Shown: positions 3,077-55,176 of the stretch, piece by piece | Position numbering within the stretch: position 1 is the stretch's first letter | Layout of the letters: each line of letters opens with the position of its first letter | Sequence record: PP274704.1 | Direction: 5' to 3' (one strand) | DNA from: Escherichia phage ECp13 | DNA length: 64,000 nt | Notes under the pieces: model-generated | The model's input: the letters and a program-made list of their open reading frames with translations, nothing else | Told to the model about the DNA's origin: nothing | Database searches by the model: none | Program-made: the position numbers and the translations under genes

Positions 3077-3362
3077 AACGTATCGTCGTAAAGATTTAAA
3101 AGTACGTGATTATGACTATTTCGGAAAGCGTAAAGCTCCTGATGGTGTAAGTCATAAAGATATGGTTGAAAACATTTTTCGCTCTGATAAATGGCGTAGA
3201 ATGAAAGGCATTGATTCAGAAGTTAAAGATGAGCTAAATCGCCAATTACGTGGTGAAGTAAGAAAGTTGAAAAAATCAGTTTACATTGATGATGATTTTG
3301 ATTATAATACTTCTCAACGAGTTGCTAAGCGCAAATCAAACGAGTGCTATCGTTACAGCTGA
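3069..3362 (+). CDS. Hypothetical basic protein (97 aa from first ATG)
   Basis: ORF track 3030..3362; first in-frame ATG at 3069. Confidence 0.5.
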   Translation: MGKTYRRKDLKVRDYDYFGKRKAPDGVSHKDMVENIFRSDKWRRMKGIDSEVKDELNRQLRGEVRKLKKSVYIDDDFDYNTSQRVAKRKSNECYRYS

Positions 3363-3369
3363 GGAAAAT

Positions 3370-3501
3370 ATGAATATCAAACGCATGCTTTTTAAACAAG
3401 GATTATACACTTTAAATGTTGCTCCAAAAGGCGATACGACCAAGTGGTCAGTAAATGATTGGATTAAATTTATTGATGAAAATGGTAACTGGAAAATTTA
3501 A
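3370..3501 (+). CDS. Hypothetical protein (43 aa)
   Basis: ATG preceded by GAGGAAAA Shine-Dalgarno; in frame with ORF 3286..3501. Confidence 0.4.
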   Translation: MNIKRMLFKQGLYTLNVAPKGDTTKWSVNDWIKFIDENGNWKI

Positions 3502-23742: not shown

Positions 23743-24771
23743 ATGTCATCAATACCTTGGATTGATAATGAGTTTGCATACCGTGCATTAGCTCATTTAC
23801 CTAAATTCACACAAGTAAATAATAGTTCAACTTTTAAATTGCGGTTTAGATGCCCTGTTTGTGGAGATTCAAAAACCGACCAAAATAAAGCCCGTGGATG
23901 GTATTATGGTGATAATAATGAAGGAAATATTCATTGTTATAACTGCAACTATCATGCACCAATCGGAATATATTTAAAGGAGTTTGAACCTGATTTATAT
24001 CGTGAGTATATCTTTGAAATAAGAAAAGAAAAAGGTAAAAGTCGTCCAGTAGAAAAACCTAAAGAACTTCCTAAACAACCTGAGAAGAAAATAATTAAAT
24101 CTCTTCCGTCATGCATTAGATTAGATAAACTGGCGGAAGACCATCCAATTATAAAATATGTAAAAGCTCGTTGTATTCCAAAGAATAAATGGAAATATCT
24201 TTGGTTTACAACCGAATGGCCTAAATTAGTTAATAGTATAGCGCCAGGAACATATAAAAAGGAAATACCTGAGCCTCGTCTTGTTATTCCAATTTATAAT
24301 GCTAACGGAAAAGCTGAGTCTTTTCAAGGACGTGCATTAAAGAAAGATGCTCCTCAAAAATATATCACCATCAAAGCTTATCCTGAGGCAACAAAAATTT
24401 ATGGAGTTGAACGGGTTAAAGATGGTGATGTATATGTTCTAGAAGGACCTATAGATTCACTTTTTATTGAAAATGGTATAGCTATTACGGGCGGTCAATT
24501 AGACCTAGAAATTGTTCCATTTAAAGATAGACGTGTATGGGTTTTAGATAATGAACCTCGTCATCCTGACACTATTAAACGAATGACTAAATTGGTCGAT
24601 GCAGGAGAAAGGGTTATGTTTTGGGACAAATCTCCCTGGAAATCAAAAGATGTTAATGATATGATTAGAAAGGAAGGTGCAACCCCTAAACAAATTATGG
24701 AATATATGAAAAATAATATTGCCCAAGGGTTGATGGCTAAAATGCGGCTATCTAAATATGCTAAGATTTAA
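23743..24771 (+). CDS. 61: DNA primase gp61
   Basis: 342 aa; Zn ribbon CPVCGDS...CYNC; TOPRIM domain. Confidence 0.9.
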   Translation: MSSIPWIDNEFAYRALAHLPKFTQVNNSSTFKLRFRCPVCGDSKTDQNKARGWYYGDNNEGNIHCYNCNYHAPIGIYLKEFEPDLYREYIFEIRKEKGKSRPVEKPKELPKQPEKKIIKSLPSCIRLDKLAEDHPIIKYVKARCIPKNKWKYLWFTTEWPKLVNSIAPGTYKKEIPEPRLVIPIYNANGKAESFQGRALKKDAPQKYITIKAYPEATKIYGVERVKDGDVYVLEGPIDSLFIENGIAITGGQLDLEIVPFKDRRVWVLDNEPRHPDTIKRMTKLVDAGERVMFWDKSPWKSKDVNDMIRKEGATPKQIMEYMKNNIAQGLMAKMRLSKYAKI

Positions 24772-24968
24772 ATTAACCCAACTAAAGCAAATGCTAAATC
24801 TACGAATGTATCAAGAGTAATTACTGGAATATTAACGCCATGAGCAATAGCAATTGGCGATAAAACAAAATTCCAGAGTAAAATTCCTACCATAGCAGAA
24901 ATAGTAAAAGCTATACGTTTTTTATTACCTTTTATGGCATTAACAAGTGCCATTAATTTTTGTACCAT
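24768..24968 (-). CDS. Hypothetical two-helix membrane protein (66 aa) on the opposite strand
   Basis: Minus-strand ATG preceded by AAGGAGG; convergent with gene 61. Confidence 0.5.
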   Translation of the reverse strand: MVQKLMALVNAIKGNKKRIAFTISAMVGILLWNFVLSPIAIAHGVNIPVITLDTFVDLAFALVGLI

Positions 24969-24977
24969 ATGTCCTCC

Positions 24978-25006
24978 TTATTGCTTTATATATTTATTGT
25001 ATAATT
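24978..25006 (+). promoter_or_regulatory. Middle promoter: MotA box TGCTTTA, 11 nt, TATAAT
   Basis: ttaTTGCTTTAtatatttattgTATAAT upstream of gene 56. Confidence 0.5.
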
Positions 25007-25039
25007 AATCTACTAACCCATGAATTGAAAGGAAAAATA

Positions 25040-25557
25040 ATGGCTTACTTTAATGAATGTAGTCAACTGATTGAAGGCGCTGATAAAGCTCAAAATGAAT
25101 ACTGGGATATTCTCGGCGATGAAAAAGACCCGCTGCAGGTTATGCTTGATATGCAGAAATCTCTGCAGGTTCGTTTAGCTAAAGATAAACCTGAATATAA
25201 CCGTCATCCTGATGATTTGGCTACTGCAGGTGAAGTTGTTGATTGGCTGCGTAATCAGAAAGATTATATTGATGATGAATTCCGCGAACTTCTGACTTCT
25301 CTTGGTGGTATGAGCAATGGCGAAAAAGATGCATCTGCTGTATGGAAGCTTGGAAGTCGCAACACGGTGAACGTCGTGAAACTCTGATTACTGACTTATC
25401 TCCACAAGACCAGTTGGAAATTAAATTCGAAATGATTGATATTCTTCATTTCGTTCTGAACATGTTCCAAGGTCTCGGTCTTACGGCTGAAGAAATCTTT
25501 AAACTTTATTATCTGAAAAATGCTGAAAACTTCGCTCGTCAAGACCGAGGTTATTAA
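25040..25557 (+). pseudogene. 56: dCTPase/dUTPase gp56, interrupted by apparent 1-nt deletion near 25346-25350
   Basis: Frame A ends ...ASAVWK then runs to a stop at 25387; frame B resumes (E)AWKSQ...ARQDRGY; the two pieces sum to ~172 aa, the intact length. Confidence 0.6.
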
Positions 25558-25591
25558 TATAAACGACGGCTTAAAAGCTGTGAGAATTTAT

Positions 25592-25599
25592 TATAAATA
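25592..25599 (+). promoter_or_regulatory. Late promoter TATAAATA
   Basis: ttaTTATAAATAgtc about 30 nt upstream of soc. Confidence 0.55.
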
Positions 25600-25629
25600 G
25601 TCATGTAATTTAAATAAAAGGAGAATTAC

Positions 25630-25875
25630 ATGGCTAGTACTCGCGGTTATGTTAATATTAAAACATTTGAGCAGAAATTAGATGGAAATAAGAAAATTGA
25701 AGGAAAGGAAATTTCTGTAGCTTTCCCTCTTTATTCTGACGTTCACAAAATTTCTGGTGCTCATTACCAGACATTCCCTTCAGAAAAAGCAGCATATACT
25801 ACTGTATACGAAGAAAATCAACGTGATGCATGGATTGCTGCAAACGAAGATCTGTGGAAAGTAACTGGTGGTTAA
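25630..25875 (+). CDS. soc: Small outer capsid protein Soc
   Basis: 81 aa; MASTRGYVNIKTFEQKLDGNKKIEGKEISVAFPLY matches remembered T4 Soc. Confidence 0.85.
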   Translation: MASTRGYVNIKTFEQKLDGNKKIEGKEISVAFPLYSDVHKISGAHYQTFPSEKAAYTTVYEENQRDAWIAANEDLWKVTGG

Positions 25876-35915: not shown

Positions 35916-36092
35916 ATGCCAATGTATGATTATAAATGCCAATCCGAAGATTGCGGGCATGAATATGAAAAAATTAAAAAGATTTCTGAACGAGAAAATG
36001 ATGTTTGTCCTAAATGTCATCGTCTGTCTACTCGTCGGCCTTCTGCTCCTAAGCATGTGAATGGTGGATTTTACGACTTACTTAAAGGGTGA
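35916..36092 (+). CDS. Small zinc-ribbon protein (58 aa), FmdB-like CxxC...CxxC
   Basis: MPMYDYKCQSEDCGHEYE...DVCPKCH; ATG follows previous stop. Confidence 0.45.
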   Translation: MPMYDYKCQSEDCGHEYEKIKKISERENDVCPKCHRLSTRRPSAPKHVNGGFYDLLKG

Positions 36093-36094
36093 TT

Positions 36095-36466
36095 ATGTTT
36101 AAAATCGGTAAGAAATATCGTGTTCGTGAAGGTGAAGAAAAGAAATATCTGCTTTCTTCTATTTATAGGAATGGTTCTATTAATGCCGTAATATCTACAA
36201 GCGAATTTATCGTTGAAGATATGAAAGGTAATAATGTTACAATGATTAGTACAGCATCTGGAAATGACGGAAAAATTCTTCACAGTTTTCAGAGTAATGT
36301 TCTAATATATGATGAAGAATTTGACTTCTTCGAAGAAGTTCCTGAAGATTTTAGTTTTGAATGCACTATCACTATGAAATCTGGCGACCCTCTTTCTTTT
36401 ACGGTTAAAGATGAAAGAAGCCGCTTGAGAATTATTAGTCTCCTTCAAGCCATTAAATTTGAGTGA
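36095..36466 (+). CDS. Hypothetical protein (123 aa)
   Basis: ORF track (GTG 36089 / ATG 36095). Confidence 0.5.
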   Translation: MFKIGKKYRVREGEEKKYLLSSIYRNGSINAVISTSEFIVEDMKGNNVTMISTASGNDGKILHSFQSNVLIYDEEFDFFEEVPEDFSFECTITMKSGDPLSFTVKDERSRLRIISLLQAIKFE

Positions 36467-50388: not shown

Positions 50389-54511
<4,123 letters not shown>

Positions 54512-54519
54512 AAGTCCTC

Positions 54520-55176
54520 TTAATAATAGCCGAAATCTTGAACAGAATCCTTAATAACAATTTGATCAAATCGTGGAACATGCGAAGGTTGAGATGCAGG
54601 ATTCTGTGAAAAAAGGTTTGGCGCGGTTAAGTTACCTGTCATAGTATCTCCAGAGCGTAATACCCTAGAGTTTGCGTTTGCTGTAACAATATTTATTGCT
54701 CCATCGACATAATCTTTCCGCGTGAGGTCATAATTATTTACTGGAGATAATGAAGTTGCGCGTATTTGTGATGCTTCAATTACGCCCTTTGAGCTAATAT
54801 CTCCATTTCGTGTGTTAATTACTACAGTTCTACCTGCTGTTCCTTGTGATGATTTAAAACCAATACCATACCACGAAACAATATCCATATTTGTAGTATC
54901 ATACGTGGCATTATCACCAGGACCAGCAAAAATACCATTGTCACCTGACCCTGCACCGGGAACAGTCATTCCTTTATTAAAAATTACTTTATTTAAATAC
55001 GTGCCACCATTAGCTTTAGAAACGAAATCATTATCAGCAGCTTGTGGTTTATTATATTCTGAATATATTTTAAATGATTTATAGAGTACATCGTCACCGG
55101 CTGGATTCAATGGAAAATTTCCTTGATGCCAAATGACAGAGCCTCCAGTTGTTGAACCTACTTTTAAATCAGCCAT
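54520..55176 (-). CDS. 36: Long tail fiber subunit gp36
   Basis: 218 aa; immediately upstream of gp37. Confidence 0.8.
   Translation of the reverse strand: MADLKVGSTTGGSVIWHQGNFPLNPAGDDVLYKSFKIYSEYNKPQAADNDFVSKANGGTYLNKVIFNKGMTVPGAGSGDNGIFAGPGDNATYDTTNMDIVSWYGIGFKSSQGTAGRTVVINTRNGDISSKGVIEASQIRATSLSPVNNYDLTRKDYVDGAINIVTANANSRVLRSGDTMTGNLTAPNLFSQNPASQPSHVPRFDQIVIKDSVQDFGYY

Follow-up and report, generated by a model that had tools for sequence, protein, structure and literature searches.

A conserved opposite-strand gene for a small two-helix membrane protein between genes 61 and 56 of T4-like phages, with a possible relationship to GTA-type holins

In the reference genome of bacteriophage T4 (NC_000866) the primase gene 61 is followed by a 309-bp gap, the dam gene and gene 56, in this order; the location of T4 dam between 61 and 56, which a preliminary description of the DNA studied here had given, was thus correct. 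The gap is unannotated in NC_000866 and holds an opposite-strand ORF of 66 codons, which is also without annotation in AF158101. In the T4T record (HM137666) this ORF is entered as "dam.1, hypothetical protein", several newer records of T4, RB55, RB59 and T2 annotate a hypothetical protein at the dam.1 position, and in Shigella phage vB_SsoM_113 (LR746311) the gene is named RB32ORF030w. T4 possesses a complete set of holin, antiholin, endolysin and spanin, the lysis genes of T4-like phages are scattered over the genome, and t-null mutants of T4 do not lyse. The described holin family with which the product of the 66-codon ORF is compared below, GTA_holin_3TM (PF11351), comprises the RcGTA-type holin and phage holins encoded beside endolysins.

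The window analyzed in this study, a stretch of 64,000 nucleotides from Escherichia phage ECp13 (PP274704.1), derives from a Tequatrovirus, a genus of T4-like phages. A 601-nt query spanning the locus matched 560 phage records, with LR746311 as the best match (99.8%); over the whole window the identity to LR746311 is only about 94–98%, so that the window represents a different isolate. The order of genes on the + strand is 41, dmd, 61.4, sp, a 61.2-like ORF, 61.1 and 61, and downstream of 61 the minus-strand ORF, gene 56, soc.2, soc and mrh follow. The features of the 61-56 interval are as follows.

23743..24771, + strand: primase gene 61, convergent with the 66-codon ORF, with a 4-nt overlap.
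24768..24968, − strand: coding sequence of the 66-residue membrane protein (dam.1 / RB32ORF030w, PHROG 2024), 66 codons plus TAA.
24934..24963, + strand: terminator-like hairpin, ATGGCATT-AACA-AGTGCCAT followed by TAATTTTTGT, ΔG −8.4 kcal/mol.
24973..24979, − strand: ribosome binding site AAGGAGG, 4 nt upstream of the ATG of the ORF.
24980..25005, + strand: predicted middle-type promoter of gene 56, read from the sequence by comparison with the MotA-box consensus.
24991..24998, − strand: late-promoter-like element AATAAATA, a 7/8 match to TATAAATA, 30 nt upstream of the ATG of the ORF.
25040..25557, + strand: gene 56 (dCTPase), divergent from the 66-codon ORF.

The TAA stop of the ORF (24768–24770) overlaps the TAA stop of gene 61 inside the palindrome ATTTAAAT, and the start codons of the ORF and of gene 56 are separated by 71 nt. 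The window copy of gene 56 carries an apparent frameshift, a 1-nt deletion after position 25348. When positions 1–49268 of the window were compared with the collinear annotated genome LR746311, the ORF was the sole gene on the minus strand over some 49 kb of the early region, all the other matching LR746311 genes being located on the + strand; this is in agreement with its earlier description as the only early-region gene on the strand of the late genes. The minus-strand late block in LR746311 begins with the t holin gene.

The strong AAGGAGG and the two hydrophobic helices initially noticed in the 66-codon ORF were confirmed by inspection of the sequence, hydropathy analysis and AlphaFold2 modelling. 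The hydrophobic segments span residues 19–42 and 49–66, with a mean Kyte-Doolittle hydropathy of about 1.9 each; five Lys/Arg residues precede the first of them, and the only acidic residues of the protein are D53 and D57. The AlphaFold2 model, for which a 26-sequence alignment was used, showed helices at residues 2–12, 16–42 and 52–63 (mean pLDDT 73.7). The length of the ORF is by itself unremarkable, antisense ORFs of 50–90 amino acids being common in the AT-rich DNA of the window; it is the ribosome binding site, the conservation and the selection at the codon level that raise the ORF above chance.

The protein was searched against phage proteins, as had been proposed in the preliminary description, and proved to be the product of a genuine conserved gene. 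Homologues were found by tblastn in 850 phage records. Tequatrovirus copies are 88% or more identical to the query, those of Mosigvirus and Gaprivervirus about 50%, and those of Kanagawavirus, Gelderlandvirus and the T4-like phages of Klebsiella and Raoultella about 30%. A full-length match was obtained to PHROG 2024, a family without assigned function (E 5.4e-31, residues 2–66 against profile positions 1–65 of 65). Family members are 57–82 amino acids long, and at identities as low as about 20% they still share the reading frame and the invariant residues. Five residues, W32, N33, P38, G44 and P48, show little or no variation in alignments A1–A3, and the resulting family core, W-N-x4-P-x5-G-x3-P, is present in the window protein. 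A GGAGG-type ribosome binding site precedes the ORF in every lineage examined.

Among the Tequatrovirus copies, pN/pS was 0.12–0.18 (about 0.15), and the 20 variable sites were distributed over codon positions 1, 2 and 3 as 7, 2 and 11; the ORF is under purifying selection. The loci examined came from Tequatrovirus, Mosigvirus, Gaprivervirus, Kanagawavirus, Gelderlandvirus, Klebsiella T4-like phages and two metagenomic T4-like contigs. In every one of them the ORF sits between 61 and 56 in the orientation opposite to both and convergent with 61; its place and orientation are constant across six or more T4-like genera. In Gaprivervirus two diverged tandem copies of the gene are present. The T4 copy is 94% identical to the window protein, and its stop codon overlaps that of 61 exactly as in the window. 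T4T dam.1 and RB32ORF030w are the same gene as the window ORF, with proteins 94–100% identical within Tequatrovirus and the same convergent position next to 61. In T4, T2 and their relatives the dam cassette separates dam.1 from gene 56, and in T2-like phages a DpnII-like ORF does so as well; by contrast, in the window the 66-codon ORF directly adjoins the gene 56 promoter.

When 1.84 billion cluster representatives were searched exhaustively with the family HMM, 19 of them were retrieved, all small proteins of the same family, and neither this search nor word-indexed protein searches provided a useful name for it. Stray automatic names do occur: one UniRef entry is called "Holin", and some records carry "putative head morphogenesis protein" or "DNA packaging ATPase". 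A Pfam scan of the window protein gave no match, and a search of viral predicted structures with the AlphaFold2 model returned only its own family with significance. In the literature nothing was found on the ORF, including work on T4 ribosome profiling and on antisense or late transcripts. In conclusion, the ORF is a genuine conserved gene for a small two-helix membrane protein, and hundreds of genomes already list its product as hypothetical.

The absence of a dam methylase gene from the window had also been noted, and it was confirmed: tblastn with T4 Dam gave no hit (best E 0.65), and the DPPY motif is absent from the window in every frame. T4 Dam was also used to search the whole 169 kb of the closest complete genome, LR746311, again with no hit (best E 1.0), and for that genome a dam gene at another location was therefore rejected. 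T4 Dam occupies in T4 the same 61-56 interval as the ORF, to which it is unrelated. A replacement of dam by the ORF was considered and rejected: the T4 order is 61, ORF, dam, 56, and because T4 carries both genes they are not alternatives. Alignment of T4 with the window delimited a T4-specific segment of about 920 bp, consisting of dam and its own upstream region, which separates the ribosome binding site of the ORF from the gene 56 MotA box. The contiguous, dam-less arrangement 61-ORF-56 was found in about 322 records, T4-type dam DNA in 184 records and the T4 ORF-dam junction in about 180, which makes the dam-less layout the commoner one. Thus, dam is an accessory cassette that T4 shares with roughly one third of its relatives, and it is missing from the window because this cassette is absent. 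Other inserts were found in the same interval: a 186-aa ORF in addition to dam in T2-like phages, a homing endonuclease in a Klebsiella phage and three small ORFs in a metagenomic relative, and this variety indicates that the interval behaves as an insertion hot spot.

The predicted promoter of gene 56 consists of ATTGCTTTA (24980–24988), an 11-nt spacer and the −10 sequence TATAAT (25000–25005); ATTGCTTTA we take to be a MotA box by comparison with the T4 consensus. The T4 homologue upstream of gene 56 reads ATTGCTTA...TATAAT, and oriA with its primer transcript is annotated at this place in T4. An overlap between the ORF and the MotA-box promoter of gene 56 had been described; it holds for the 5′ leader and the promoter of the ORF, and not for its coding sequence. 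On its other strand, the spacer of the gene 56 promoter contains the late-promoter-like element.

The T4 late promoter consensus used for comparison was TATAAATA, at positions −13 to −6. From the position of the matching element, transcription of the ORF would start near 24985, with a predicted leader of about 17 nt. The sequence NATAAATA is found 20–30 nt upstream of the ATG, followed by GGAGG, in nearly all lineages despite differing flanks, and it is kept between T4 and the window though the surrounding sequence is unrelated. In Kanagawavirus the element is an exact TATAAATA, and in most lineages A, G or C stands instead of the first T of the consensus; a published comparison of T4-like genomes describes weak conservation of the T at −13, where A or T is common (PMC1524935). 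The heptamer ATAAATA occurs 10 times in the window, counting both strands, against 37 ± 6 expected (3.7-fold depletion), and within the early region the minus strand has only two copies, one of them upstream of the ORF. The retention of NATAAATA together with a strong ribosome binding site in nearly every lineage suggests that the early region probably harbours a late gene in the form of this ORF. Its earlier reading as an early-region gene on the late-gene strand should be revised in this sense, the promoter being what marks it as probably late.

The terminator-like hairpin of the + strand falls within codons 6–12 of the ORF; T4 has the identical hairpin, which is not clearly conserved in other genera. 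It likely serves as the stop for transcripts leaving gene 61. On the minus strand no terminator-like site was detected from 24800 down to 22300, and a late transcript of the ORF should therefore run antisense into gene 61.

A link of the family to holins was obtained from its distant members. These matched PF11351 with E 0.03–0.1 (13.6–15.3 bits), all in the same register and in the C-terminal part of the profile (positions about 66–117 of 123), and one of them matched phrog_3427, "holin", with E 5e-4. In addition, an intermediate family of 91–97 amino acids with an N-terminal extension was found on IMG/VR contigs (L103–L109). This family matched PHROG 2024 with E 4e-10 and PF11351 with a best E of 7e-4 (20.5 bits; range 16.5–20.5 bits), in register, over positions 39–114 of 123. 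The Pfam gathering cut-off for PF11351 is 24.8 bits, and all the PF11351 scores of both the 66-residue family and the intermediate family are below it. One of the intermediate-family contigs encodes a phage lysozyme and a membrane-anchored coiled-coil, spanin/XhlA-like protein within 2 kb.

For profile-profile comparison a bona fide PF11351 reference was built from a 136-aa holin (84.9 bits), encoded directly after an endolysin gene, and 68 of its IMG/VR relatives. By hhalign, a profile of T4-like sequences only matched the intermediate family with a probability of 97.1% (E 7e-11), and the intermediate family matched the PF11351 holins with 87.8% (E 3e-6). The direct comparison of the T4-like-only profile with the PF11351 holins was not significant (0.7%, E 0.08), and the wider family profile A3 gave 13.9% (E 0.002) with a score of 22.1. 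When the A3 comparison was repeated with shuffled columns, scores of 10.7 ± 2.3 were obtained, and none of 100 shuffles reached 22.1. Circular shifts are invalid as a control for hhalign, the local alignment surviving them. Two further proteins were considered as anchors. ICP1 TeaA has been assigned to PF11351 by remote homology (PMC7182436); no Pfam match was obtained for it by hmmscan, so it was not used. The "GTA-like holin" of Pseudanabaena phage Pan1 matched PF11351 weakly (E 0.04) and was kept as a supporting similarity only. Taken as a whole, these comparisons make homology between the 66-residue family and the membrane core of holins probable. A role in lysis in the T4-like phages is a separate matter, which we regard as conceivable and somewhat on the doubtful side.

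The explanation we propose is that the ORF encodes an accessory, holin-like protein of the inner membrane, made late and representing a truncated relative of the GTA-type "3TM" holins; we consider the chances for and against it to be about even. The N-terminus of the protein is basic and amphipathic and would face the cytoplasm. The transmembrane helix that comes next contains a Pro kink besides the invariant Trp-Asn, and a short conserved loop, His/Gln-Gly-x-x-x-Pro, connects it to a second hydrophobic helix, which is short. Transcription of the gene would run counter to that of the surrounding early region and would start at a gp55-type late promoter of its own, which is intertwined with the MotA-dependent gene 56 promoter. 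The protein may then oligomerise in the inner membrane late in infection and modulate membrane permeability or the timing of lysis alongside the main T holin, while its transcript, having no obvious terminator, would continue antisense into gene 61. A more far-reaching version, in which the protein is a second, overlooked T4 holin-family member of the lysis and lysis-inhibition system and the transcript also silences the primase mRNA by antisense pairing, appears unlikely to us; such a protein might co-oligomerise with the T holin, prime it, or depolarise the membrane.

The strongest competitor is that the ORF encodes a late small membrane protein with a role unrelated to lysis, for instance in membrane anchoring or assembly, in exclusion or anti-defence, or in modulating a membrane protein of the host; its resemblance to holins would then reflect only a shared helix-hairpin architecture or very old ancestry. 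This is a real possibility, though we would not expect it to be the correct one. It accords with a holin link that is sub-threshold and transitive, with the position of the ORF away from the lysis genes of T4-like genomes, with the full lysis set that T4 is generally known to have, and with the unrelated labels "putative head morphogenesis protein" and "DNA packaging ATPase" on some records. It fits less well with the in-register matches of several independent members to PF11351 and to a PHROG holin family, and with the proximity of the intermediate family to a lysozyme and a spanin-like gene; positive evidence for any other specific role was not found.

Alternatively, the RNA could be the main product, either as an antisense transcript across the 3′ part of gene 61 that shuts off the primase late, or through interference with the overlapping gene 56/oriA promoter, the ORF then being secondary. 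The late element inside the spacer of the gene 56 promoter, the overlap of the ORF with the gene 61 stop codon, and the antisense run into gene 61 expected from the lack of a minus-strand terminator-like site between 24800 and 22300 would all suit such a function. An RNA-only role, however, leaves unexplained the strong conserved ribosome binding site, a pN/pS of about 0.15 and the amino-acid motifs kept at 20–50% identity while the DNA diverges, and in T4 the ORF is still kept although its promoter is about 1 kb away from that of gene 56. We therefore regard the RNA as a rather improbable main product, with the reservation that RNA and protein roles are not mutually exclusive. That the ORF is spurious, kept only because it overlaps the terminator hairpin of gene 61 and the promoter of gene 56, is scarcely credible: the hairpin does lie inside its codons, the T4 RefSeq has no annotation there and antisense ORFs of like length are common in the window, but substitutions are mostly synonymous (11 of 20 at third and 2 of 20 at second codon positions; pN/pS 0.12–0.18), the frame is open in genera whose DNA no longer aligns, the length is constant with W, N, P, G and P invariant, and outside Tequatrovirus the ORF is conserved and the hairpin not clearly so.

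The finding is thus real yet ordinary, being a catalogued hypothetical gene, and the absence of dam needs no special explanation. What is added here is its omission from the T4 reference annotation, its probable late expression, and the interleaving of its promoter with the gene 56 (oriA) promoter in phages without dam; in addition, the product may be a truncated holin-family protein, all statements on function being what we infer. T4 is among the best-studied viruses, and its reference annotation omits dam.1, a gene conserved in position, orientation and sequence across the T4-like phages that infect Enterobacterales. If the product is a functional holin-family protein, it would be an unrecognised component of the textbook T4 system of lysis and lysis inhibition, and the locus would be a compact case of a late gene back-to-back with a middle promoter and a replication origin.

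Among the known holins, those of class II (two transmembrane helices, about 65–95 amino acids, e.g., the S pinholin of phage 21) presumably share with the ORF protein its size, its short loop and its probable late expression. Family scans detected no sequence similarity between them; class II holins have a charged C-terminal domain, whereas the ORF protein has its charges at the N-terminus and is encoded outside a lysis cassette, its neighbours being the primase and dCTPase genes. Since the lysis genes of T4-like phages are scattered, the distance of the ORF from the endolysin gene carries little weight. The failure of t-null mutants to lyse means that the 66-residue protein cannot be a self-sufficient holin.

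The PF11351 holins differ from the ORF protein in several respects. The latter is about half their size; the N-terminal hydrophobic helix, coiled linker and basic C-terminal tail are missing from it, and of the hydrophobic helices only the last two remain. No endolysin gene adjoins its own, and the phages that encode it already possess the T holin. The aligned core has the same layout in both: a basic stretch is followed by a transmembrane helix, which contains an aromatic-Asn/Gln-aromatic motif and a Pro, and then by a Pro-rich loop with an acidic residue after it; a short hydrophobic helix with Gly-Leu at its end completes the core.

The 66-codon membrane-protein gene lying on the minus strand between genes 61 (primase) and 56 (dCTPase) is conserved in T4 but carries no annotation in either T4 reference record (NC_000866 or AF158101), where a gap of 309 bp separates 61 from dam, the DNA adenine methyltransferase gene. 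The name dam.1 was given to this T4 gene in record T4T. The T4 copy and a hairpin associated with the gene in the window were located as follows:

L002 (T4 locus) 3239–3439, plus strand in L002, equivalent to NC_000866 17738–17938: T4 copy of dam.1
window 24934–24963, plus strand: terminator-like hairpin on the early strand, within the 5′ portion of the minus-strand coding sequence

The hairpin is identical in T4, and is not clearly conserved in other genera.

The contents of the interval between the minus-strand gene and gene 56 differ among the relatives compared (L002, L005, L011, L004 and L022), and the inserts seen were:

dam
a DpnII-like ORF together with dam
a homing endonuclease
an extra NTP-pyrophosphohydrolase fragment
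three small ORFs

The interval is a hot spot for insertions. In T2-like phages (L011 841–1401, minus strand, and the T2 records) an ORF of 186 amino acids is found between dam.1 and dam, showing a weak match to the catalytic region of the DpnII family of GATC-specific restriction endonucleases (Pfam E 0.0045, below the cut-off). This match hints that the T-even dam cassette is derived from a GATC restriction-modification module.

In the window, gene 56 (25040–25557) is split into two ORFs, one extending to 25387 and the other spanning 25342–25557, because of a 1-nt deletion after 25348 as compared with T4 and with Shigella phage vB_SsoM_113 (LR746311), the closest complete genome (AAGCCTTGG to AAGCTTGG). 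The deletion lies in the stretch 25340–25360 and yields a new HindIII site. Either it arose as an error in sequencing a CC run, or gene 56, which is essential in T4, is truly mutated here. Identity to LR746311 falls steeply or vanishes in the soc.2 region directly 3′ of gene 56 (25558–25867) and in the tail-fibre (38/37) region (about 50430–54998), which points to a mosaic relationship between the two genomes.

Counting both strands, the whole window has only 10 copies of the late-promoter core ATAAATA, versus 37 ± 6 in dinucleotide-preserving shuffles. This approximately 3.7-fold depletion is what would be expected if stray late promoters were selected against. An exact TATAAATA was observed at 36160–36167 (minus strand), within the plus-strand early ORF 36089–36466, and no convincing ORF or ribosome site was found downstream of it; possible readings are a late promoter in antisense orientation and a coincidental match.

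In Gaprivervirus UPEC01 (L006), two diverged membrane-protein paralogues are present in tandem (1995–2192 and 2201–2401), of which one is similar to the T4 type and its partner to the Klebsiella/Enterobacter type. The second copy lacks a separate promoter motif. Such a tandem layout is reminiscent of holin/antiholin or hetero-oligomer pairs.
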